Part shown: positions 6,791-38,479 of the stretch, piece after piece | How positions within the stretch are numbered: position 1 is the stretch's first letter | Layout: every line of letters starts with the position of its first letter | Assembly: GCA_026025795.1 (NCBI GenBank) | Contig: JAPEUG010000081.1 | Coordinates: forward strand, 1 to 53,311 | Length of the DNA: 53,311 bases | From: Thelocarpon superellum | Lineage: Eukaryota | Direction: 5' to 3' | The notes under the pieces: model-generated | What the model was told of the DNA's origin: nothing | Databases searched by the model: none | What the model saw: only the letters and a program-made list of their open reading frames with translations | Position numbers and translations under genes: made by a program

Positions 6791-9700
6791 ATGTCGCTGA
6801 ATGGATTGGAGGACCCTCAGATCACCGATGCATTCCAGGCCGCCCTAGCCGAGCCCGGAGGATGGTGAGTCTGCCTGCCGTGCTCCTGCTCAGCGCCATC
6901 ACCGCCGGAGCAAGCGGCGCGTGTCGTGCTGAGAGCGCTTTGGCTAATCGATCGGGGGTAGGTTCGTGCTCAAATACGCCACCCGGGATGGCGTCGAGCT
7001 GCTGGCCCGTGGCAGCGGCGGCGTCGCTGATCTCCGCGAGGCCGTCTCCAGCTACCCCGAACAATCGCCTCTGTACGGATTCTTGAAATTCCGGCGACGG
7101 AGCGTGCTTCTGAAATACGTACCCAATGGCACTTCACGTCTGCTACAAGGTACAGAACGCATCCGCTCCGGTCCGTTCCTCGGAACCGTTACTTATGCTT
7201 CTGACAGCCCGGGTCGCCGTCCACTTTCAATCCATCGCCGAGAATTTCTCGCCCCACGATGCCGTCTTCAACATCGCCTCCGCTAACGATCTCAAGGATA
7301 CGGCCCTCTCAGCGGCTTGCTCCTTGCATGCCGCCTCTCACTCCACCTCCTCATCCAACAGCTCCTTACCCCGTCCACGCCTGGGCGAGATCGCCGAAGA
7401 CGCCGAAGAGACCCGGACGGTCCAGGGAGAGATCGAGAAACCGCTACCGCCGTTGCCTGACGGTCCCGCCCCAACCTTCCCTCACCGAGAGGCGTCTGTC
7501 CGGAGCAAGGCCGAGATGAGGTCGAGTGAGGACACCGAGCGTGCTATCCGCGATGCCGTTCTCTCCGCCACCTCCCCCGCGACCGAGCTCGACCGTGCCT
7601 TTGCCAGCTCTGCGACCCCGATCGCCCCATTCCTAGACCACCGCCCATCCACCTCGAGCAACGCACCGCCGCCACCGTCCAACGAGATCGAAGACCGGCG
7701 CATGTCGTCCAGCTCCATGCGACCTTCCACGCGTGAGCTCGCCAATGCCTATCCTTACGGGCTGAAACCGAAGGTGAAGTTGGGACCACGACCGTCGCTT
7801 GATCATGGCGGACGACCCGACTCAAGTCTACATGGCGTCCGACCCGTCTCGGCCCTGCCAGCTGGCCTTCGCGTGGCGCCGCGCAAGCTATCCGGCCCCA
7901 AGACCAAACCCCATCATCCGGCCGCAGCGATGCCAACGATCGATTCCGCCTTGCTTCCACCCCTCCTACGCCGAGACATCCCGCTGTCGCCGACATTGGA
8001 GATTCCTCGTCCAACAACCAGCTCCAGCGTGGCCGGCGGCCCGGCTCCTTCCGTTCATTCCGTCGTCTTCAGACCTGCCCCTATGTCTCCCAGCAAGCAG
8101 AAGTTGATGAAGGCGCTCCAACTACGGAAGAAGCAGATGGAGGCATCAACCAAGACGGCCCCTCAGGAATCCGACGAGAAGGGAGTCGGCGAGCCCCAAG
8201 GGTCCGAAGCTCAGGACGGGGGCCTCGTGTCACCCGTCTCTCAGGTTACTGCGGACCTTCCATCGTCCCCCGAGGAGACGACCGGGCACGGAGCTCCACC
8301 AACCAAACTTGCGGCCCCCGCGACCGAACCTCTCTCCCTGGCGCCGTCAACCGAACACGGACCCTCGGAAGAAATTGCTATGGACAAGACCGGCTCGTCA
8401 CCCGTGTCTCTTGCGGAATCCCACGACCCGGTGTCGACCAAGGCCTCATCGGTTTCCGAAAACACCGATCACCACCAGTCCATGTCGACGGAGCGGGCGC
8501 AGAATGATGTGGGTGAGATGGAGAGCTCGACCAGTCCTCAACAGGAGGTACCTCCCGTCTCAAGCCAAGTTGAGGAGATGGCGGATCACCCGGATGGAGA
8601 GAACGAGCCGAAACTTGACAGCTCAGGGCCCGGTGAGGTGCCTACGGCTCAGACGGGGGCAGGGAAAACGACGGCTGAAGAGCTACCGGTGGACGAGTCG
8701 GCGACAGAGAAGACGCCTGCTGACCATACGCCTATCAATGATATGCCTGCTGAAAAGGCACTTGTGGGAAAGACACCGACCAAGGCGTCATTTGAAGAGA
8801 CACCAATTGAAGCGACCCCGGTTGAAGAGACGCCGATCAAAGAGACGCCGGTTGTTGAGACGTCGGTTGACGACGCGGCGGTTATAGACGTGCATGACGA
8901 CGAGATCAAGCATGCTGTCCCTCATCAAGACGAGGAAGATGACCATTCGTCAATCGTGGACGAATCCGCCGCCTATCTCAACGGAAATGCTGAAATCGAG
9001 GAGAGTCTTGATGAGGAAGTCCCACCGGCTCATGTCGAGCGATCGGCCGAACACGGGACGGCGGCAGCCGCCGACCACTTTGGAGATGGAACCTTTCTCG
9101 ATACCGGAAACACCACCGACGCGGACGCCGACAGCAGGACGTCCAAGGATGGTATGGATGAGAGTGACTTTCTTGGCCCTGCCACCCCCTCTACTTCTGC
9201 CGTGCCTGCCACTCCTGCCACTCCCACTACCCCCATCGCCTCCATCGTGAATGGCCGTAAGGATGGCCAAGTGACACCTGCCCCACGCGTCGAAGATGTT
9301 GCGCGTACCAGCTTGCACCTCTCACGTGCATCTGATTCCACGGGTGGCAGTGGTTCGAAGCGAGCCAGCGTGGAAGAGAGTACGTCTCCGCAGAAGAAGC
9401 GACGAGGTCTGGTGGATCCGATCCGTACCGATATCGATCCCGACACCTCTGATGATAATCTACTCTCCGACAAATCGCTGATGAACGAGCTACGGGCCGC
9501 GACGGTGGAAGAGGCTCGACCCGTCTCCGTGCGCAAGTCTCCGATGAATTCAGCCTTTCCTCGCCGGCCAAATGAGGCATGGATGGCTAATTGGGCGGCG
9601 TCAAACCCATCCGTTCCGATGGCGACCTCGATCACCAACGGGTCGTCAGCGGTTGAGGTTCGCGCGGACGGCCGAGAGCGATCGACGTCGGGCTCTTTGC

Positions 9701-11045
9701 TCGCCGTTAATGGGCACAAGCAAGGGCCAATCGCAATGATCAAGAAGATCAACGTGTCATCGGGCATCTCACAGCGCATCAAGGCTCTCGAGATGCTCTC
9801 GAGCCAAGCCAACGGTGGCCCCGTCACGCCGCCGCCGGACGCCACTCCCAGTCCGCAGTCTTCCCCTGCCTTCTCCAGCTTGCGGAACTCGACCCGGCGA
9901 TCGCCTTCCCTTCGCCAAGGCACCACGCCGACACAGCCAAAGAAAGGAATCAGCTTCAACCCCTTCTCATCCAAACGTACCGCGCCGGTTGAGCCACCGT
10001 GCCGTGAAGAACCTACGTCGAAACCGGCCGACCATGATGATATGCCCAATGGGAATGCATCCGAGGTCCCGACCGAGTCTATCTCGGTCAAGGCGCGGAT
10101 CCTCAAGGACGTCAATCAGCCTTACGCGGCCGACGCTGAGGCCATTCTGGATCCGAACGACCCCACACCCCTCGACCTCCAAGCCAGCCCGCTCGTGATC
10201 GAACACCACAGGGCGGTTGCCGCGCCGCAACGGTCGCGCGTCCACTCATCGAAGAATGAGCGACCGTTGTCGACGATATCTTCAAGCATGGCGCAGCGAT
10301 CCGCGCCGACGTCGCCGACCAGCACGCGCCGGGCATCGAATGCAAGCAAGCATTCGAGCTCGAGCGTGGGTCGGGCTGAAAAATCGCCACCACCAGGGTC
10401 GCGAATCTCTTCGTCAAGCGGAGGTGCCAGCGCCGAGGATAAGAAGGAACAGAGGAAGGAATCGACCAAGAGCCGCATCTTCCGCCGCATGTCGTCCATC
10501 TCCGGTGGATCTCGCAAGAGTGTCGTCCACGCCGTTAGTCCGACGGTGCGCGAAGAAGAGATGGCCGACCCGGTGGCGGGCTCGGCGCAGCGACGACGGA
10601 CTAGTATCGAGGTGGGAGAGGTGAATGTTCAATTTCCGGACAGCCTGGTGCGTTCAAGATGTGGAGCTGACTCAAACGCGCTTGCGTGCTAACGCTGATA
10701 TTCTCAGCTCTGGAAACGGCGATGCTTGAAAATCGACTCCCATGGATATCTCACCATGACGCAGTCCAAGGCCGATGAGCTCGCCAGAGCCAGCGCCAAA
10801 CGCTATCATCTGGGGGAATTCAACCCTCCATATGCACCGGATCAGGATGGACAAGAGCTCCCTCACAGCGTGATCCTGGATCTCCGCGATGGCGGGACGT
10901 TGCAATGCGCGTGTGAACACCCGGCGGGACAAGCTCACGTGCTGAAAAGTATGTGAAATGACTTGAATCTACATTTACTCTCTGCGCGCACGCTGACACG
11001 TCTTGTGCAGAGCTGGCTGAGGCCCACGGCGCGTGGGTGAGTTAG
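6791..11045 (+). CDS. Large protein with N-terminal ADF-H (cofilin-like) domain, long low-complexity middle and C-terminal PH-like domain
   Basis: Exons 6791-6864, 6962-7149, 7208-10647, 10708-10948, 11011-11045 with GT-AG introns. N-terminus MSLNGLEDPQITDAFQAALAEPGGWFVLKYATRDGVELLARGSGG...PLYGFLKFRRRSVLLKYVP. C-terminus VNVQFPDSL|LWKRRCLKIDSHGYL. Confidence 0.82.
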
Positions 11046-27297: not shown

Positions 27298-28048
27298 TCA
27301 GCTGCGTTGGAGGAAGGCTTCGCGTTCCAGCACCTCCGGCTGGAACTTGATGAGAAAGACCGTCTTCCCCGGCCAGAGCTCCGTGCCCACCCCATGTGCC
27401 GTCACCCGCGCGGGGAAGCCTGTGCCATCACACACGCCCTCGATGATGCCCGCCACGAAGGCGGCGCAGTTCAGTTGATTCATCTCCTTGGGCACAGAGA
27501 TGTACTGGTTGACGAGGGGGTCATTGTCCGAGATCATGTATTCGTCTTCGTGGTCCTTGGACCGCTCCAGCGCATCGGCCGGGCGCGAGAAGAGGTGTCG
27601 CCACAGCGTGGTCGTGATCAATTGGAGCAGGGGAAGGATCTTCGTCGGTCGTTGCGCCGTGCGCACGGGTTCGCGGTAGAGGAGGAGGTCGAGGAGACGT
27701 AGCCCCAAGGAATAGCCTTGCACATTGAGTCTGGAGCGGAGGCCCGTCAGCTGCGGACGCGCAACGCGACGCGGGAGGCGCCGCGGCCCCGACGTCCACC
27801 CACCGCTTCTCCAAGTCCTGGATGCCCGTGACGCGACGTTGTGCGTACGTGACCATCTCCCCGAAGAGGTAGGCGAAACTGGCCCGACTGAGCTCCGCCG
27901 TTCGGCTCCGGTTCAAGTTGCGGTCGTAGATGGTCTTTTTGTTGCTGGGGTACCGCAGTCCACCCACCGCTCCCCGCCCCGCTGCACCTTGACCAGATCC
28001 GGGCGGGACGCCGGACGGCGCCGGCTTCGCTGCTTGCGATGCACTCAT
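27298..28048 (-). CDS. TRS31: TRAPP complex subunit Trs31 (Bet3 family)
   Basis: LRYPSNKKTIYDRNLNRSRTAELSRASFAYLFGEMVTYAQ...LEKR|LNVQGYSLGLRLLDLL...YISVPKEMNQLNCAAFVAGIIEGVCDG..FPARVTAH. One intron. Confidence 0.95.
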
Positions 28049-28860
28049 CCTCCTCGTCTCGTTCACTAGAATGGGGACAGCGCCGGTCGAAGGTGGCTCG
28101 CAGAGAAGCTCAACGCATCGTGCGGGTCGACCAGTGCAAGACGTCAAGGAGTGACGGTGGAAATGTCTGAAGTGGGGAATATATTAGTTGTCTCGTGTAA
28201 ATCGCATTGGGTCGGCTGCGGCTCTGGCCAGTCCTCGCCGGAAGCTGTGAGAAGTTGACCGAGTGGATTGCACGGCAACAATATGATCGTTCATGCAGGT
28301 GGTTCGTCTGGGGCACCTCAGAGCGATGAGCAGCGCCTTTCGCCAACCGGACATTATCCGCCGTATCCCCCGCCCGTGATTTAGACACGTCGAGACGCAT
28401 GCGGATATTGAGTTGTAATGCCTTCTGGACCTCCTATTGGCCCACATTTGAAATGGTCACGACCAATCCCCCCAACACCGCGACGATCGATATGACTACA
28501 TTAGTGAACGTAGTAAATGATAGAATCGTTCACTGCAGATCACGGTGCAACTTCCCTTGCCGCAGCGACATCAACATCCCCGTCTCTCATCATGGGCACC
28601 GGCTGACCCCCGTCCCCTCCTTCACCGCTCTCTAAACTGCCGCGAGAGCCGCGTTCTGCCATCCTCCACCCCCCTCAGCCGCAATCCGGCTTCGACGCCG
28701 CCGCTCGGAAGGCACGACCACAGCAACACCAGCGACCACAGTGCACACTGACGACACCGTCGACGTCGTGGTGGACGACCGTCGGTGGTCAAGGCATTCC
28801 CACGGCTCGCCCTTCATCGTCCATGTTGCTTCCGTGATCGGGAGCACATCTTTCTCATCC

Positions 28861-30308
28861 ATGTCGGAGGCGGATCTCGAACATCGTTCTCCTCAGGCCG
28901 GCAATTCCCCCACCCTCACCCTGGCCGACCGCTCCCCCGCCAGTCCCGCGGCCGTCCCGGGACACGAGGGCTTCGTCGCGCCCTCGTCATACCTACGTCC
29001 ACGGACCGTGTCCAAGCCGAAGGAGACCCCACCTCCGCCGACCCCGCTGGACCTGGAACAAGCTCAAGGCTTGGTAGGGCCTCCATTTGTCGTCGGCGAG
29101 CGCACGAGATACACGTTCCTTGCTGACCGAGACTACGGGCGACCTACAGCGTGCCATACGCGCCTTTCTCAAAGTTCGTACCAGCTACGACGTCCTCCCA
29201 CTCAGTTTCCGCCTCATCATCTTTGATACCACGCTGTTGGTCAAGAAAAGCCTCAACATCCTCCTTCAGAACGGTGAGGAGTGGGGTTCCATGACATCCC
29301 CGCTGCCGCGGCTGATCGTGGTCAACCCACAGGCATCGTCTCCGCCCCGCTCTGGGACTCCAAGTCGTCTACCTTTGCCGGGCTGCTGACGACCTTTGAC
29401 TACATCAACGTTATCCAATACTACTGGCAGAACCCCGATGCCCTCAACCAGATCGACCAATTTCGACTGAACAGTCTGAGAGGTGAGTGTGCGACCGGCA
29501 CGTCGTGGGGTCGTGACCCCACGTCAACCACTCGACTAACTGCCCCGTCCGCAGAGGTGGAGAAGGCGATTGGCGTAGTGCCGATCGAGACCGTGTCCAT
29601 CAACCCACAGAAGCCGCTCTATGAGGCCTGCCGGCGGATGCTGGAGTCGCGGGCCCGTCGGATCCCCTTGGTCGACGTAGATGACGAGACCAACCGGGAC
29701 ATGGTCGTCAGCGTCGTGACCCAGTACCGCATCCTGAAGTTCGTCGCCGTCAACGTCACCGAGACGCAGATGTTGCGCAAGCCCCTGGGCACGTTGAGCC
29801 TCGGAACGTACGAGAATCTCTGGACGGCACACATGGACACGCCGGTCATCGATGTCATCCACATGTTCGTCAAGCGAAGCATCTCCAGCGTCCCTATTGT
29901 CGACAAAGAAGGTCAGACTACGCCTGCTCCACCGCATCGGGCCGCGCTGACAGACAGTAGGCCAGGTGCTCAACGTCTTTGAGGCGGTCGACGTCATCAC
30001 CATCATCAAGGGCGGCGTCTACGATGACTTGACCCTGAGCGTCGGCGAGGCCTTGACCAAGCGAGCCGAGGTGCGCTCCCGTACCAAGCCCCCATCACGA
30101 GAAGACATTCACTGAACAGAGCTAGGACTTCCCCGGCATCTACACGTGCACCCCGAACGATCGGCTGGATACCGTCTTCGATACGATTCGCAAGTCGCGC
30201 GTCCACCGTCTGGTGATCATCGACGAAGCCAACCATCTGAAGGGCGTGCTCACCCTCAGTGACATCCTCGAGTACATTCTGCTCGAGGGCGAGGGCGAGG
30301 AAGGTTGA
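28861..30308 (+). CDS. SNF4: AMPK/SNF1 gamma subunit (CBS domains)
   Basis: RAIRAFLKVRTSYDVLPLSFRLIIFDTTLLVKKSLNILLQN|GIVSAPLWDSKSSTFAGLLT, SVVTQYRILKFVAVN and SRVHRLVIIDE..LKGVLTLSDILEYIL. Five GT-AG introns, stop TGA at 30306-30308. Confidence 0.96.
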
Positions 30309-31379
30309 GACGAGACCGCACCAAGGATCTTCACTGCGCGTGTACGTGAGCATCAGCGCGGATCGGGATTGGGGCACGGCGATTCGGGAGGACACCTGGA
30401 GGAATATTTCTGTATTTTCTATAGACGGCCGATCATACATCGACTTTTTCGATGTTCCTTCAATACCCGGCGCCTCGTGCGCATTCCTTTCGTGCGCCAG
30501 GCGGTGCACCTCGTGCTCGTTGTTGGACGGGTGGCTGTCCTTTGACGTCGTGGCCTCATGAAAGGAACGCGGTTTATAGGACCTCTCAATAAGCAGCCGG
30601 GAAGGCGTACGAATCCAGTCAAGCCACCATCAACATTGTGCATTGCATGGTTCATCTGTGCCTCCCTTTCCCCATCTCTCTCACTATCAAGCTGGCTGAT
30701 CTCGTGCCCTAGCCTCTCCACCCGGGTCCCCCCTCGTGGGTACGTCCAACGGATCGCGACTGGCGCAGCCTTCCAGCCCGCTTTGGCACCCGGCGTGTCC
30801 GACCGCACCGTAGCCATCTGTTCCACGCTCCCTTATACGGAAGGGACCCCTGAGATTGTTTGGTGGTGGTCTTGTGGCAGAATCTGACTCAGCGCCTGGC
30901 GGATCCCCACTCAGGGGGAGGTTTCCCCGCTCACGGATAGGGGGGCGGGCTCCGTCGACGAAAACACCCTTTCAGCACCTTGGTGGGTGGCGTGGTCAGA
31001 CCAGCCTTTCGACTGAAGATGGGGCTCGTCTGCCGCTTCCTTATGCTGGATCAACCTGGCCGAAGACGGGAGGCACGCACTTTTTCTCGCGCCAGATCAA
31101 CCCTCCGGCGGGTGTCCGCCACATCAACCACACGAATATAGGAGGAGCTCCTCCCCGTGCCCTCCTCCGGCTATCATGAATCGAGGCGCGCCTTCCACGC
31201 TCACTCGATCATGCCAGGCGCCCGAGATCAACATGTTGATCTGCTATGGGCGCCGCTCGCGTCGCGCCCATAAAGCCGTGGTCATTTATCTTCGGCTTCC
31301 TTTCTCTTCTTCTTCTTCTCTTCTCCTCGTGAACACTTCCTTGGCTGAGCGCTCCCCCTCTTCCATCACGACGCCCATC

Positions 31380-33320
31380 ATGGCGTCCATCGTGAAGTTC
31401 ACCACCCTCATCTCCTCTCTCCGCGAGCACCGCTCGCTCTCTCGAAGGGTGTCCCCGTCGCGTCTGGCGGCACTCTCGACCTCGATCCCCACGGCTGCCG
31501 TCGCCCTCTCGCGAGGGCCTGACGCCGTGGTCGCCACATCTCGGACGCCCTCCAAGGGCTGGCTTTCACAGCAGCTCCTTGCGAGGACCTCCTCGTCCGA
31601 GTCCCGTGTCGACCGGGACGTTGTCGATCGAGTCGCCGCCGGCGACCTCCCGGCCCCTTCGCCTCTCTCGGCCGTCGTCGCCCTCCTGGCACGACGCGCC
31701 TGTTTCGCCGCCGCGGCTCGCGGTTCCTCGAGGTCACACGAGGACCGACGCCCGGCCGGCCCCTCCCCTCCCGCGTCCGCGACCCGCCGCTCCTCGAGGT
31801 CACACGAGGTCGGCGCCCGGACCGGATCTCCCTCTCTCGATGCACTCGATGCATTCGACCAAGCCGACTCCGCCGAGCGCGGATCCTCGCGGCCAGGCGA
31901 GGATACCAGCTCCCGGAGCGGCTCCCCCTTCCCTCTCGGTGCACTAGATGCATTCGAACCGACCGACTCCGCCGATGGCGACTCCTCACGGTCACATGAG
32001 GATAGCCCCCGGATCGGTCCCGCACTTTCGTCCGCCCCAACCGCCGGACCCGACGCGCCTGATGCCGACGTCGAGATCGACTCGAGCGATTGCAGCGCCG
32101 CGGCTTCGGCCGAGGCGTTCTCCCGGGTCGACACTCCGCCGCAGATTGCGCGCCTGCGTTCCGTCCTGGTCGATTGTAGCGCCGAGTTGCGAAACTCGGC
32201 ACTCTCCCAGGTCGGACGCAGTTCCGACGGTGCTTCGAGTCCCTGGGACTCGGAGTTGGATGGAAGCCTGGTCCAAGGACTTCCCGCCCCGATTGGCGCC
32301 ATCGCCCCGAGTTCCTCGGCGACACGCCAATCCAAGACGGAAGCACCTTGCGACCTCCTCGGCGCCCTCTTGAGGGTCGCCAACACCGAAGCCCCGGAGC
32401 AAGACCACCGTGGGCACGACATTCCATTGAGGAGTGTGCGTGTCCGGGCCTTGCTACCGACGCATTGCCCCATGCCCGAGCGGTCGACTCGCGTCGTCGT
32501 GGAGCGCATGGAGAGTCTCGCGGAGCTGTCGCCGCCAGTCGTCTCCTCCGACCGTGTCGGGGGTCACTGGCCCGGCAACTTCGCCGACTTCGGTCCCTTT
32601 GGGGCCATTTTCGCAATGCCGACGGGGCTTCAACCCGTCGCGGACGGCCCGGCACTGCCGGGACTGTTCGACGACTTTACGGCGTTCGCGCCGATCGATG
32701 GACGTCGCGAGACGGTCCTCGACGCGAGCCGTGTCGGAGACCTTCTGGTCAAGGCTCCGATGGTGGGAAGCGCGGCGACGACGGAGTCGGCTCCGATCGT
32801 CACACCGCCTCCCGCCGACCGGGCTGCAGGGATGCACGAGGCACCCGCCGCAGCCAGCTCGGCCGCCACCGCTCGATCCGCCTCCGGCGAGGTCGAGCGT
32901 CTCCCGGAGTCGCCATCGCGCGACCTCACCCCATCCACCGGCGACGATTCGAGTGCGCCCGGAGTAGGCCCTGGTGTCTACTCCGACGATCGCACGTCGT
33001 TCCCGGTCTGGTACGGACGGGAGCCGAGCAATTCGGAGGATTGGGGCTCCTTCGGCGGCGTTCCATCCCTGCGGCGCGCGTTCACTTTTGAGCGCCGCGA
33101 CCAGGGCATGGACGCCATGCGGAGGGAGATCCTTCGGCTTCACCGGCGGGTGGAGTCGAAGGACCGGGAGTTGGAGGAGAAGGAGGAGGCACTTCGGTGC
33201 AAGGACCAGGAAATCGAGCGGCTGCTCGAGGACCTGGCGTGGAAAGACGAGGAGCTGGTCTGGAAGGACGAGCTCCTGGTGGAGGTGAACGAGGAAGTCG
33301 AGCGACTCGAGAACGCCTAG
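31380..33320 (+). CDS. Intronless orphan Ser/Pro/Ala-rich protein with internal repeats and C-terminal acidic coiled coil
   Basis: Open frame 31176-33320, most plausible ATG at 31380 (MASIVKF) after a pyrimidine-rich leader. SSRSHE-type repeats. C-terminal heptads KDRELEEKEEALRCKDQEIERLLEDLAWKDEELVWKDELL. No family recognised. Confidence 0.6.
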   Translation: MASIVKFTTLISSLREHRSLSRRVSPSRLAALSTSIPTAAVALSRGPDAVVATSRTPSKGWLSQQLLARTSSSESRVDRDVVDRVAAGDLPAPSPLSAVVALLARRACFAAAARGSSRSHEDRRPAGPSPPASATRRSSRSHEVGARTGSPSLDALDAFDQADSAERGSSRPGEDTSSRSGSPFPLGALDAFEPTDSADGDSSRSHEDSPRIGPALSSAPTAGPDAPDADVEIDSSDCSAAASAEAFSRVDTPPQIARLRSVLVDCSAELRNSALSQVGRSSDGASSPWDSELDGSLVQGLPAPIGAIAPSSSATRQSKTEAPCDLLGALLRVANTEAPEQDHRGHDIPLRSVRVRALLPTHCPMPERSTRVVVERMESLAELSPPVVSSDRVGGHWPGNFADFGPFGAIFAMPTGLQPVADGPALPGLFDDFTAFAPIDGRRETVLDASRVGDLLVKAPMVGSAATTESAPIVTPPPADRAAGMHEAPAAASSAATARSASGEVERLPESPSRDLTPSTGDDSSAPGVGPGVYSDDRTSFPVWYGREPSNSEDWGSFGGVPSLRRAFTFERRDQGMDAMRREILRLHRRVESKDRELEEKEEALRCKDQEIERLLEDLAWKDEELVWKDELLVEVNEEVERLENA

Positions 33321-33414
33321 CAGCGTTCACGGAAGACTTCGGTCTTGCGCCCGTCCACGACTTTCGCCCTCGTTACCCCCGCCCCGTCCCCACGGAGCCG
33401 GCGACGAGAATCCG

Positions 33415-34061
33415 GAAGAAATTGAGGGTCGGCCAGCCGTGGCTTGCTGCGCGACCATTCTCCCTTCTCGATTCCCGCCACCAACGATCCCGACGACGCG
33501 GACGACTGGCCAGCCGTTGCTTGCTGCGCAGTCCTCCGCCATTCGGATCCCCGCTCCCCTCCTCCTCCTTTTACGACAAAGAAATTGAGGGCCGGCCAGC
33601 CGTTGCTTGCTGTGCAGCCATTCTCCCTCTGTCGTCACCCTCCCCTCCCCCCCGCCTCCCCCCGGACGATGATGGAGAAATTGAGGACTGGCCAGCCGTT
33701 GCTTGCTGCGCAGTCATTCTCCCTCCCAATTCGCCCGCTCTCCCCGGCAACGACGACGAAGAAGTTGAGGGTTGGCCAGCCGTTGCTCGCTGCGCACCTC
33801 TTCTCTCTTCGTCCCGTTGTCGGTCCCGGTGTCGACGCCGATCGCGGAGAAATTGAGGACTGGGCAGCCGTTGCTTGCTGTACGGTCATTCTCCCTTCCC
33901 GGTCGTCTCGATGCCCTCTCCCGTGTCGAAGACCTTGAGGGTTGGCCAGCCGTTGCTTGCTGCGCAACCATTCTCTCTTTGTCACATCTCGAACGTCATC
34001 CCCTGAACGCGAAGGAGTTGAGGGCCAGCCAGCCGTTGCTCGCTGCGTGGTCATTCTCCCT
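33415..34061 (+). repeat. Array 1: eight copies of a ~48-nt hairpin repeat separated by variable ~30-45-nt C-rich spacers
   Basis: Consensus GAAATTGAG-GNNNR-GC-CAGC-CGTTGCTT-GCTG-CG-YNNNC-ATTCTCCCT. Cores at 33433, 33510, 33596, 33692, 33776, 33864, 33946, 34029 (periods 77, 86, 96, 84, 88, 82, 83). Confidence 0.93.
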
Positions 34062-34298
34062 TCTCCTTCAGCCTGACGTCCTTTCTTCCAGTCGCTCTGT
34101 CGTCTGTCTTTACCGACGTCTGTCGTCTGTCGCGGTCGTCGTCCAGTCGCCTCGTCGCATATCGTTTCGTCTGCCGTCCACGATGCTCAATCATTTGATC
34201 GAACTCGGTGGCTGCGGAGTCCTACCCATCCCGGAGTATTCCGGCTTCTTGATGGTTTTGACCAATCTCTGCTCTGTCGTCCGCAAGGGACCAAGCAA

Positions 34299-35580
34299 CC
34301 AAACATCTTTCTGTCGTCCCCAAGCGACCCACCTGACATCCCGCCGGCGATCACCTCTCGAAGCCTCCTAGGCTCCTCGATCGCACGAGCAAATCTCATC
34401 GCTTTCGAGCAACCAAGCAAAACTTCCGCCGACGATCATCTCCTCGATCGCACGTGCACCCCAATCTCTTCTCTGTCGTCCACAAGCGACGGATCAAACA
34501 TCCTCCCCGGCGATCACCTTTTCGAGCTGCCCAAGCTCACGATCGCACGAGCACCGTGACCAACTCTTCTCTTCGTCGCTTTCCAGCGACTGCAAAAGCT
34601 CCTGACGTCGATCATCTCCTTGAGCACTTCCCGCTCCTCGATCGGACGCGCACTCGTGAGCAAAAATCTTTTTCCTCCTCGCTTTCCGGCGAATGTCGGG
34701 ATATCCTGCCGGCGCTCATCTCGAGCACTCCCTGCTCTCGATCGCATGTGCAACGGTGACCAATCTTCTTCTTCTTCATCGTTGTCACGTCGTCGTCGTC
34801 GTCGCATTCTTCTTTCGTCGACCGACCGGACCTCTGGCCGTCGATCGCCTCGTCAAGCTGCCCAAGCCCTCGATCGTACGCGCACTCATGACCAAACCTC
34901 TTCTCCTCGTCGCCTCTCAGCGACGAACAACTCTCTCTGCCGGCGATCACATGGAACACTCCTCGCTCCTCGATCGCACGAGCAAGTGTGACCAATCTCT
35001 TCTCCGTTGCTCCGAGCGACGCTCAAGTCCTCCCGCTGTTGATCATCTGGAGCCTCTCTTGCTCGATGATTGCACGAGCGATCGTGACCAAACCTTTATC
35101 TCTTCCTCGCTTACCAGCGACCGTACAACCCTTCCGCCGGCGATTGTCCGTTCGAGCTCTCCCCGCTCTCGGATCGCACGAGCGTCACCCTACTTCATGG
35201 TCGTAAGCAACGACGACCAATCCAATCCAATCCAAGTCCTTGTTGCCTTGCGACCACAAGCAACCTCCCCGCCGGCGATCCGATCACGAGCTCGAGCTCT
35301 CTTCGCTCCCTGATCGCACGAGCGCCAACATACGTCTCGGTCGTTAGCAACGAACGACCAAACCAAACCAAATTCCGTCGCCTGGCGACCAAAAGCAACT
35401 TCGTGCCGGCGATCATCTTCCTCGAGCAACTTTCGCTCTTCGATCGCACGGCCCTTCCTTTCTCCCTCTCGCGAGCAACTGCGACTGCAATCAATCTTCC
35501 CGCCGGCATTCACCTCCTCGAGCTCAGCCCGCTCGCTGTTTGCACGGGCGCCAACGCTCCCGTCGCCAGCGACGCAGCAA
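34299..35580 (+). repeat. Array 2: about twelve diverged ~100-nt units, each with two hairpin-forming motifs
   Basis: Unit is ACCAA..(Y-rich)..GTCGC-n-GCGAC...GCCGGCGATC..GAGC-n-GCTC..GATCGCACGAGC. GATCGCACG-like motif near 34379, 34446, 34541, 34640, 34740, 34872, 34972, 35068, 35172, 35312, 35442, 35538. Confidence 0.85.
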
Positions 35581-35604
35581 CTTCTGGCTCCTGATGGTAC
35601 TCAA

Positions 35605-37714
35605 ATGGCAGGTGAGTCAACACACCTGTCGGCCGCGCGACAGACGTCCAGTGGCACGACTGACATCATATCAGCCAAACATTTCGTCGATGATCCTACC
35701 CGGCTGGTGCGCACAGCGCTGGAGGCCGCTCCTCTCATAAACCCTTCATTAGGCCTCGACGCCGAAAACAAGATCGTCTACCGACGGGCCAAGCATGCAC
35801 CACAAGTAGCTTTGGTCTCGGGCGGAGGCTCCGGCCACGAACCTAGCTTCACGGGATTTGTCGGACATGGCCTTCTGTCAGCGGCAGTGGCAGGCTCTAT
35901 CTTCGCCAGCCCCAGTGCTGCACAGGTCCGGTCGGCCCTTCTACAGCGAGTAGACGGCCGGCAGGGTATCCTGGTCATCCTCATGAACTATACCGTGAGT
36001 GATGAACTCCTGTCACACCTGAAATTCTGCGGGCGAGAGCGCAGTCTGATCTGCGACGGCGACGATAGGGTGACGTGCTCAACTTTGGCATGGCCGTGGA
36101 AAGCGCCAAAGCAAGTGGAGCGCAGGTGGAAATGGTCGTCGTCGGCGACGACGTCGGTGTCGGGCGACGCCAGGCGGGGAAGGTCGGCCGCCGAGGCATT
36201 GCAGGCACAGTGCTGGTACACAAGATCACCGGTGCGCTGGCAAGCACGGGGTAGGGCATCGCAAGAGCAGAGGACGAGTCGGACAGGCTGACCAGGCACC
36301 TCATCAGGGCCCCCCTGGACCAGGTGCGCAACATCGCGCTGCTCACATCCCAAAACTTAGTCTCCGTCGGTGCGTCCCTCGATCGGGTCCATGTGCCTGG
36401 TCGCGCCCCTTTGGAGCCTACCTCCGACGAGACGCTGGCCACTGGTGAGGTCGAAGTGGGAATGGGCATCCATAATGAACCCGGTTCCTACCGCGCCCGC
36501 CTGGACCTACATGGCCTCGTGAAGTCGATGCTCGCCCAAATTCTGGACGATGACGAGGATCGCGCCTTTCTTCGCATCACCCCGGACGATCCCGTCGTGC
36601 TCCTGCTGAACAATCTTGGCGGAGTGAGCATGCTTGAACTTGCCGGCATCACCACCGAAGTGGTAAGCCAGTTGAGATCATCATATAGCATTAAGCCTGC
36701 GAGAATTCTCTCGGGCACCTACATGACCAGTTTGAACGGCCTCGGCTTCAGCATCACGCTCCTGAAACTCGTCGACACAGGGCTCGGCAAAGGGCAACAA
36801 CTGATCGACCTCCTAGACGCCCCCGCGGAAGCCGTGGGCTGGTCCGCACCTGTTGCTCCACAAAGCTGGGGCCAGAAAGGAGACATCGAGGAAGACACCG
36901 TGATGGGCGGCATCGATGACTACTCCAAGCCCAGCGGCTTCCGCAGTGAGCATCTCCGTACCCAGTCCGAGTCGAGACGCTGACGATTACGACAGTGGAT
37001 CCAGTAGTCGCAAAGACGGCGTTGGAATCTGCTCTGAAGCGTCTGATCCATGTAGAAGCCGACATCACGCACTACGATGACGTGGTGGGCGACGGCGACT
37101 GCGGGGTTGGACTGACGCGAGGGGCTGAAGGTGCGTGCACAGTCTCGCACGGCAGGCATGTGGCTTACAATCTTAGCCGTCTTGAGCGTCATCACGGGCG
37201 ATCAGCCGCTGTCTGACGACGCGGAGGTCGAGGTCAATCGCTGGGCTCGCATCGTGGAGACGAGCATGGACGGCACATCTGGCGCCCTCTACACGTGAGT
37301 CGGTCTGGGGGGCCCAAACGAGACGTCTACCGCTGATCACTACGCAGCATCTTCCTGCATTCGCTCGCCCATTCGCTCCGCGAGGCCGGCGAGACCGGCT
37401 TGCAGATAGGGACCGCCTTCCAGTGGGCCGAAGCTCTTCACGCTAGCCTCGCCGTGCTACGCCGCTATACCCCAGCGCACCCGGGCGACCGCACCGTGGT
37501 CGATGCCTTGCAGCCTTTCATCGAGGTACTGCAGCACACGGGTGATGTGAAGCAGGCGGCCGCTGCGGCCAAAGAGGGTGCGAGGCGAACCCAGAGCATG
37601 AGACCGAGTCTAGGCAGAAGTGTCTATGTTGGCGGGGATGGCTGGCGAGACGTGCCCGATCCGGGGGCTCATGGGTTGAGCGAGTTCCTGCTGGGATTTG
37701 CAGCCGGACTGTGA
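35605..37714 (+). CDS. DAK1: Dihydroxyacetone kinase (DhaK-DhaL fusion)
   Basis: [112 protein letters not shown] and PDPGAHG. Six introns. Confidence 0.94.
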
Positions 37715-37831
37715 GTCCATTTAGATGGCTAGGCTCCCATAACATCGTCGCGAGCACTTCATCCCTGCCACTCCAACTTTGGGGATAGAGTACACGTAGC
37801 CAAGCCCAAGGAAGCGCGGTAATCTTATAAC

Positions 37832-38479
37832 TCAACTGAGCAGAACGAGAATGACCGAGTCCCCGCGCAGAAACCTGATCGAGACCAGCCATGTCAGCAA
37901 GCGTCGACGGCTCGTACCTCGTGGGAGAAGTACGGCTGGGGGCCACAAGTCACGTACATCTTACTGATAAAGCGATCTTTGTTCACCGGTCTCCCCTTCT
38001 TGCCCGACGCCAACCGCGGCGTCTCCGTCCACATCTCCTTGACATTCTCCAGCACCATGTTGCAATGGCGATCGAACGCCTTGACTCTCGCGAGCAACTT
38101 GCGGTTATTCCGACACGAGATCAGCACCTGTGTGTGCGAGCGGACGGCCGTTTGCAAGATCGAGAGAGGACCTGAGCTGAACTCGTGCTCCTCGAGTTGT
38201 GCGATCTCGTATTCCCTGCATGACGACGAGGGATGCTTAGCTCTTTGATACTTTACCACGACGAAATATTACGTGGCTCCCGTGTCTCCTTTCCCTCATG
38301 TAACCGCCCACTGTCTTTTCAGAGGGAAGCTAGATGGTCCAGCAGCAAAGTAACGTACGTGAGCTCATTTCGCGGCTTGTTGAGCAATTCCCTAGGAAGC
38401 GATTCGAGCATTAGCTATGACTCATCAAAGAGCGGGGACTCGACCAGTGAGTGACGCACGCAATCTTTGCATCAGACAT
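37832..38479 (-). CDS. SMD2: Small nuclear ribonucleoprotein Sm D2
   Basis: [79 protein letters not shown]...[21 protein letters not shown]. Confidence 0.97.

Follow-up and report, generated by a model that had tools for sequence, protein, structure and literature searches.

A tandem array of eight covarying hairpins next to an orphan gene of Thelocarpon superellum, a candidate structured RNA element

The DNA analysed here is a 53,311-nt stretch of Thelocarpon superellum (GenBank assembly GCA_026025795.1, contig JAPEUG010000081.1, positions 1 to 53,311 of the forward strand), referred to below as the window. Just 3' of an orphan open reading frame (ORF), positions 33405-34071 of the + strand carry eight head-to-tail hairpin units, here called array 1. 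Array 1 is a real and statistically solid structured repeat whose units share a common fold and differ from one another by changes that preserve pairing. Its most favoured function, which is put forward tentatively, is that of a multivalent platform of protein-binding RNA stem-loops.

Structure and covariation of the array 1 hairpins

The start-to-start spacing of the eight in-register copies found by repeat search is 77, 86, 96, 84, 88, 82 and 83 nt. All eight units contain the 16-nt core CAGC-CGTTGCTT-GCTG with zero or one mismatch each, and the single other match to this core in the window has three mismatches. The nine matches compare with 0.49 expected, and none of 100 shuffles reached nine. 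Gap-free alignment of eight 71-nt windows gave 71 columns, 23 of which are invariant. These include both halves of the inner stem CAGC/GCTG (columns 30-33 and 42-45) and six of the eight loop positions; variation in the loop is limited to position 4 (unit 1) and position 7 (units 5 and 8). Only three of the 128 cells in the 16-nt apex are changed, while the flanks share almost nothing. Over 75 nt the copies are 61-73% identical to the reference copy, and the surrounding GC content is 60-66%.

An earlier, sequence-only reading of this DNA had reported eight repeats with an invariant inner stem and a near-invariant 8-nt loop, and both the sequence and the alignment bear it out. It had also placed the repeats 95 nt behind the stop codon of the orphan ORF, which agrees with a TAG ending at 33320, 95 nt before position 33415. 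Its description of the spacers as unrelated to each other holds for their sequences, but the spacers are not inert, as the two flanks of each unit pair together. The linker between units 3 and 4 (33638-33661) has C-tracts on the + strand and G-tracts on the - strand and is the sole linker with i-motif or G-quadruplex potential.

Described on the + strand, each unit is a hairpin of ~65 nt, much longer than had been described earlier, and the same architecture appears in all eight single-sequence folds. The base of the hairpin is an outer stem of ~9-11 pairs formed from the so-called spacers on either side of the conserved core. Above the outer stem lies an asymmetric 5x3-nt internal loop (AAAUU opposite UCC), followed by a middle helix that combines G-A-G/U-U-C with the five variable pairs and has a single bulged A on its 3' side. 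The upper part comprises a 2x2 internal loop, the CAGC/GCUG clamp and the 8-nt apical loop CGUUGCUU. RNAalifold recovered the single-unit shape, with 23 pairs, 13 of them changed on both sides. When 940 nt were folded globally, five of the eight hairpins formed completely and a sixth formed in its apical part.

The units were compared using R1, a covariance model built from all eight. Unit 1 (33405-33475) has the arm GGTCG/CGACC and the loop CGTGGCTT, folds with the full architecture at a minimum free energy (MFE) of -25.6 kcal/mol and scores 90.3 bits with R1. Unit 2 (33482-33552; arm GACTG/CAGTC; MFE -30.3 kcal/mol, z-score -4.13; 63.7 bits) lacks the TTGAG and ATTCTC-like flanks conserved in the other copies, as the sequence-only reading had claimed. 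They are replaced by the complementary pair GCGGA/TCCGC, so that the internal loop is closed and the helix is kept even though its sequence differs. Unit 3 (33568-33638; 85.1 bits) has the arm GGCCG/CAGCC with one C-A mismatch, and unit 4 (33664-33734; 85.8 bits) repeats the arm GACTG/CAGTC and has the weakest outer stem (MFE -21.8 kcal/mol, z-score -1.0). The arm of unit 5 (33748-33818; 76.7 bits), GGTTG/CACCT, is imperfect; this unit has the loop CGTTGCTC and a long outer stem (MFE -28.8 kcal/mol, z-score -2.89). Unit 6 (33836-33906; 80.4 bits) has the arm GACTG/CGGTC, which contains a U-G pair, and an altered 2x2 internal loop. Unit 7 (33918-33988; arm GGTTG/CAACC; MFE -24.3 kcal/mol, z-score -2.54) scores 83.5 bits. 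Unit 8 (34001-34071; 78.6 bits) has the arm GGCCA/TGGTC with a G-U pair and, like unit 5, the loop CGTTGCTC (MFE -27.2 kcal/mol, z-score -2.53).

The five-bp arms are exactly those listed in the sequence-only reading; both partners change in four of the five pairs and one partner in the fifth. Almost all of the arm changes are transitions, with G-U intermediates in units 5, 6 and 8. A further G-U pair, at columns 22:54, is kept in seven of the eight units and exists on the + strand only. Conservation is concentrated in the unpaired positions and the apical four base pairs, while the helices vary yet stay paired. This is the pattern from which selection on the fold had originally been proposed.

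Several statistics describe this pairing. When the 22-pair structure is laid over the eight units, 86.4% of the 176 pair cells on the + strand hold standard pairs, compared with 39.2-53.1% in a control in which the 3' partners were slid by 1-3 columns. Pairs changed on both sides number 12 of 22, compared with 2-5 when slid, and in none of 500 shuffles were the pairing, the double-change count or the covariation score as high as observed. In an alignment-independent test, the 16 nt preceding every core were paired with the 16 nt following every core, giving 64 duplex combinations. The mean duplex energy was -9.45 kcal/mol for cognate flanks versus -5.79 kcal/mol for non-cognate flanks, and the true assignment of flanks was the best of all 40,320 permutations. 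With the five-bp arm alone, 48 of the 40,320 permutations do as well as the true assignment.

Two other classifications of array 1 can be rejected. The sequence-only reading had noted that the unit lengths break the reading frame, and no frame is in fact kept through the array: the units shift the frame, one frame carries TGA in seven units, and the longest open frame has GC contents of 0.75/0.67/0.50 by codon position, compared with third-position GC (GC3) of 0.61-0.83 in the known genes of the window. The frame shifts, TGA codons and GC3 of 0.50 indicate that array 1 is not coding. The same reading had called the layout similar to clustered regularly interspaced short palindromic repeats (CRISPR) in a fungus without cas genes. 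The eukaryotic context is supported by genes with introns, and no Cas family was found among the 18 long ORFs scanned, but the spacers are the bases of the hairpins. As the repeats are also non-identical and their flanks mutually complementary, array 1 is not a CRISPR array.

With filters off, R1 found no further copies in the other 52 kb of the window (best match outside the array 13.5 bits, E-value 0.19), although it scores the eight units at 63.7-90.3 bits. The core of unit 3 (33579-33628) is matched by contigs of a sequencing run resembling the source (X1) and of two moss-metagenome runs (X2 and X3), with ~6 differences in the moss runs. All of these contigs extend into flanks not present in the window, which implies that at least one additional copy lies elsewhere in the genome and that a close relative in the moss metagenomes has one too. 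This copy is apparently solo, since the 126-167 nt of additional sequence in the moss contigs contain no second match to the array.

No match to Rfam 15 was obtained in the whole window at gathering thresholds, in keeping with the sequence-only reading, which did not recognize the motif. At E-values up to 10, positions 33200-34400 gave three sub-threshold matches only, all to unrelated long non-coding RNA (lncRNA) or microRNA (miRNA) models (8.8-20 bits, compared with cut-offs of 45-97), and none to a ribozyme family, a result confined to the self-cleaving classes described in Rfam. A metagenome scan for the pattern of loop, clamp and GAGG returned no stretches. The viral and prokaryote scans gave one match each, in which the searched word alone fits R1 (20.8 and 18.1 bits); as the flanking helices are lacking, both are attributed to chance. 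Seven metagenome loci encode relatives of the downstream dihydroxyacetone kinase, Dak1 (45-68% identity), the two closest of which have 34 and 404 nt upstream. The best R1 matches in these loci (16.5 bits, E-value 0.028, GC 0.33; and 13.1 bits) are not convincing, and no tandem array was found upstream of the Dak1 relatives in loci L005 and L006. Crude word searches of the literature on fungal tandem hairpins and stem-loops found no published description of such an element, which is not proof that there is none.

Proposed function and alternative explanations

Array 1 may be a multivalent array of protein-binding RNA stem-loops, located either in the long 3' region of the orphan gene or, upstream of Dak1, in a non-coding RNA. 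This is the leading proposal, and it is held with less than even confidence. The presence, eight times over, of fixed unpaired nucleotides on freely varying helices suggests docking sites for a protein that reads both loop sequence and shape. Three changed cells of 128 in the apex, next to flanks that are nearly unrelated, are not predicted by uniform neutral decay of a tandem duplication. The further copy with different flanks, in the genome and in a relative, is as expected of a reusable recognition element.

The proposed model is as follows. The eight tandem ~65-nt modules would fold independently, and each would display the same unpaired nucleotides: the loop CGUUGCUU on its CAGC/GCUG clamp, the 2x2 loop, the bulged A and the AAAUU/UCC loop. 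Helix sequence would be free to vary provided that pairing is kept. The modules would be recognized by an RNA-binding protein specific for both sequence and shape. The carrier would be a + strand transcript, with array 1 in a ~0.9-kb 3' untranslated region (UTR) of the orphan coiled-coil gene that ends in a low-GC patch at 34220-34309; alternatively, the carrier may be an independent non-coding RNA transcribed upstream of Dak1. A single RNA would thus gather several copies of a single protein, which would either control the stability, translation or localization of that RNA or be sequestered on it.

A number of points weigh against this model. The eight copies are paralogues in one genome rather than independent sequences, and the structure was derived from these same sequences; the shuffle controls therefore overstate independence. 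Neither the metagenome scan nor Dak1 synteny recovered an orthologous array for phylogenetic covariation. In the GC-rich background, single units have modest z-scores (-1.0 to -4.1). The two strands differ little in folding: 82.4% of cells are paired in the mirrored structure on the - strand, compared with 86.4% on the + strand, and the summed single-unit MFEs slightly favour the - strand (-218.8 versus -206.7 kcal/mol). The consensus energy favours the + strand (-23.85 versus -19.56 kcal/mol), and we lean towards the + strand for the functional molecule, mainly from context: array 1 is co-oriented with its two neighbouring genes, which lie on the + strand, and the intergenic region is pyrimidine-rich on that strand. 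A 3' UTR of ~900 nt is unusually long for a fungus. The loop matches no verifiable recognition motif. The neighbouring repeat (array 2, described below) has the look of a promoter repeat acting at the DNA level, so that a tendency to form repeats may simply be a property of the whole region. A search for sequencing runs that contain the locus returned DNA contigs and no RNA run. The sequence itself establishes that the repeat exists, that its units fold alike, that pairing survives their changes and that they do not code, whereas transcription, strand, protein binding and biological output are inferred.

The strongest rival is that array 1 is a palindromic minisatellite without RNA function, made and kept palindromic at the DNA level by replication slippage or template switching. 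We consider this unlikely, but it accounts for several of the observations. A study of template switching reports that this replication process can give rise to hairpins and, in a single step, to seemingly compensatory changes (10.1101/2021.04.15.439925; PMC8794818), and the near-equal folding of the two strands is what a DNA palindrome would give. The adjoining array 2 is conserved in sequence, has CCAAT-like boxes, abuts the Dak1 ATG and shows little covariation. In one variant of this explanation, the array 1 repeats might be binding sites far upstream of Dak1, as the word GTTGCT/AGCAAC is common to array 2 in the opposite orientation; AGCAAC, the complement of the array 1 loop core, occurs nine times on the + strand of 34072-35604, compared with 12 times in the rest of the window. 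If the repeats were protein-binding DNA sites, however, nothing would explain why outer stems specific to each unit, and inner arms that vary, remain complementary. An invariant apex beside saturated flanks requires selection or very local conversion, and G-U pairs, including the one kept in seven of eight units, make sense only in RNA. There is no other such repeat in the 53-kb window. Cruciform extrusion is poor for imperfect hairpins that combine an 8-nt loop with bulges and internal loops, and the geometry of the array 1 hairpins is accordingly unfavourable. None of these points is decisive.

A second rival, with a somewhat smaller chance of being correct, is that array 1 encodes a precursor from which small or unit-length RNAs are cleaved. 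Processing could be of the Dicer type, in a polycistronic hairpin cluster with the constant apex as the handle and the variable stems as the products; alternatively, the loops could be a series of cleavage sites for an endonuclease, such as Ire1 in regulated Ire1-dependent decay. Hairpins of ~65 nt at a spacing of 77-96 nt with short linkers are similar to polycistronic hairpin clusters, and outer stems that differ in every unit would give diverse products. The pattern of conservation is reversed relative to known hairpin small-RNA families, however, with fixed loops and bulges and variable arms. The 5x3 loop, the bulge and the 2x2 loop break up the stems, and the longest exact match of any of the nine inter-core segments to the rest of the window (blastn-short) is 14 nt, in a CT run, which is at chance level. 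As for Ire1, the Schizosaccharomyces pombe enzyme is described in PMC8104961 as cleaving stem-loops at UG|C when the loop has 3, 7 or 9 nt, a site in the BIP1 mRNA being one example. U-G-C is present in the loops of seven of the eight units, a lead graded as weak: the site is a 3-nt word with an estimated chance of ~1 in 10 of occurring in an 8-nt loop, and the orphan protein has no obvious signal peptide as judged by eye.

It is improbable that array 1 is a small mobile or dispersed palindromic repeat that was amplified locally, either a eukaryotic analogue of bacterial elements of the repetitive extragenic palindromic type or a fragment of transposon subterminal repeats. The contigs from X1 and the two moss metagenomes that match the unit 3 core with flanks foreign to the window would fit such an element. 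R1, in contrast, detects no further copy in the remaining 52 kb, and the viral, prokaryote and metagenome scans gave nothing or chance matches. No terminal inverted repeats were found around array 1 or the intergenic region; the nine inverted pairs in 28000-38000 (19-38 nt, 71-89% complementary) do not bracket either. There is no transposase-like ORF, and the orphan ORF has no Pfam family. Miniature inverted-repeat transposable elements have conserved ends and a variable interior, which is the opposite of the pattern in array 1.

Least probable of all is a eukaryotic repeat-spacer RNA factory, in which one transcript with eight hairpins would offer the constant apex as a handle to a dedicated processing or binding protein and release the unit-specific basal stems as eight guide-like RNAs, optionally with kissing contacts of 7-8 bp to two loops of array 2.

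Neighbouring genes and the second array

The orphan ORF (31176-33320, +) encodes 714 amino acids from its first ATG; the recorded 646-amino-acid form starts at 31380. The predicted protein is disordered and has a C-terminal heptad-like acidic/leucine repeat (coiled-coil). Its Atlas model has a mean predicted local distance difference test (pLDDT) score of 0.40, and no related Atlas cluster was found at 0.9 or more. No Pfam family was assigned to it and, among 8000 scored candidates, no homologue was found except itself. The GC contents of the ORF by codon position (0.67/0.58/0.76) resemble those of the known genes of the window, and on this basis it is taken to be a real, lineage-specific gene. 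Its heptad-like C-terminal segment (...LEDLAWKDEELVWKDELLV...) contains 2.5 copies of a 21-nt coding repeat (33227-33279, +).

Arrays 1 and 2 are separated by a non-repeated linker of ~190 nt (34072-34259, +). The lowest-GC intergenic stretch in the composition profile (~34220-34309, GC 0.48-0.52) overlaps the 3' end of this linker and is a possible 3'-end region for the transcript of the orphan gene. No canonical poly(A) hexamer is present anywhere in 33321-35604. Depletion of ATG was considered as a sign of a long leader and rejected as too weak (12 ATGs on the + strand versus 20.5 expected; 29 on the - strand). Minor contigs of run X1, at about one third of the local depth, cover 34092-34161 and 35457-35535 with clusters of 4 and 6 differences, respectively. 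These contigs could represent a second haplotype, a paralogous copy or repeat units cross-mapped at the 80% likeness setting.

Array 2 (34260-35600, +) has ~12 units of roughly 80-135 nt and stops 4 nt short of the Dak1 ATG. It conserves the blocks CCGCCGGCGATC, TCGAGC-N7-GCTC, GATCGCACGAGC, GTGACCAA(T) (CCAAT-like) and a small GTCGC-loop-GCGAC hairpin, and its mean column identity is 51%. Tandem Repeats Finder (score of at least 80) detected array 1 and a short 30-nt repeat inside an ORF in the 53 kb and nothing else; the more diverged array 2 was not detected at this score. Array 2 was considered as a second covarying RNA, but only two of its ten predicted pairs change on both sides and this interpretation is unsupported. 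It is more readily seen as a repeated promoter (or leader) module acting at the DNA level.

Two hairpins in array 2 have loops complementary to that of array 1. The hairpin at 35198-35219 (+) has a 7-bp stem and the loop AAGCAACG (35205-35212), which is the exact 8-nt complement of the array 1 consensus loop (MFE -9.9 kcal/mol, z-score -3.68). The hairpin at 35339-35359 (+) has the 7-nt loop AGCAACG (35346-35352), which is complementary to 7 nt of the array 1 loop (MFE -9.4 kcal/mol, z-score -2.56). This complementarity could reflect loop-loop (kissing) pairing within one long RNA or a DNA-binding word used in either orientation. Coincidence within a repeat is another possibility, as the observation is post hoc and the chance of such an 8-mer is, by rough estimate, a few percent in 1.5 kb.

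The start of the Dak1 (dihydroxyacetone kinase) gene, with introns, lies at 35605-36983 (+), where two ORF pieces match Pfam Dak1 (E-values: 1.9e-28 and 1e-36). By eye, 35605-35676 (+) consists of a 7-nt first exon (ATGGCAG) and a 63-nt intron (GTGAGT...CTGAC...CAG), followed by the conserved KHFVDDP N-terminus; a second intron starts with GTGAGT after ...NYT, at ~35995. The gene content of the window is eukaryotic, with WD40, EFL1, UCH, MFAP1, CBS, Dak1, Spt21-type and bZIP genes and short introns. At 7114-10692 (+), a 1192-amino-acid open frame with a coding-like GC3 of 0.66 and no Pfam family is possibly another lineage-specific gene.

Comparison with known multi-hairpin systems

The 3' UTR of transferrin-receptor mRNA contains a cluster of five iron-responsive elements (IREs), in which a fixed loop and bulge are carried on varying paired stems and multiple binding of one protein sets the fate of the mRNA. 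An IRE has a six-nt loop of fixed sequence and an unpaired C five bases upstream. Array 1 resembles this cluster in having several copies of one hairpin in a 3' region, with fixed loop and bulge and with stems that vary yet pair. It differs in that its loop is 8 nt long with another sequence and lacks the bulged-C geometry, and no IRE model matches at E-values up to 10. Its units are also longer (~65 nt) and tightly tandem (77-96 nt), in a fungus-like genome.

The A-repeat of Xist consists of ~8 GC-rich cores that form hairpins, separated by pyrimidine-rich spacers, and NORAD units are likewise lncRNA repeat modules; such modules are platforms for multivalent protein recruitment. Array 1 has in common with them about eight tandem GC-rich structured cores with variable pyrimidine-rich sequence between. 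There is no sequence relation, however, and the array 1 spacers pair into unit-specific basal stems. The lineage and size are different, and array 1 is known from DNA only.

Polycistronic small-RNA clusters, namely animal miRNA and Dicer-dependent fungal miRNA-like RNA (milRNA) clusters, also consist of tandem hairpins of ~65-70 nt at a spacing of less than 100 nt. Among paralogues of such hairpins, the arm that yields the mature RNA is better conserved than the loop. In array 1, by contrast, the loop and apical stem are fixed or nearly so, the arms vary and the stems are heavily interrupted. The likeness to CRISPR lies in the repeat-spacer layout and the partly palindromic repeat; the 61-73% identity of the array 1 repeats, spacers that are complementary across each repeat and the eukaryotic gene context set the two apart. 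Engineered stem-loop tag arrays of the MS2/PP7 type are similar in design, with a constant protein-binding loop, varied stems, non-repetitive linkers and at least eight copies behind an ORF; an 8x MS2 version is named in PMC10032653. Array 1 is natural and also present in environmental runs, has no Rfam match and has longer hairpins with internal loops. Its closest counterparts are the IRE cluster and the lncRNA repeat modules in working principle and the engineered tags in design, but it belongs to none of them, as loop, size and taxon differ and no family model matches. The element is apparently undescribed, but the case for it comes from a single locus in a single lineage.

Compensatory changes in tandem repeats may come from selection on RNA pairing or from template switching at the DNA level, and array 1 provides a clean case for telling the two apart; the relative in the moss metagenomes shows that natural variants exist. 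If array 1 proves to be transcribed and bound, it would be a natural equivalent, in a fungus, of the multi-hairpin platforms of animal mRNAs and lncRNAs, with eight docking sites and a code of both sequence and shape. Through it, a new RNA-binding protein and the regulon of that protein could be sought by tractable experiments, the solo copy hinting at further targets, and array 1 would show how a young lineage-specific gene acquires post-transcriptional control.

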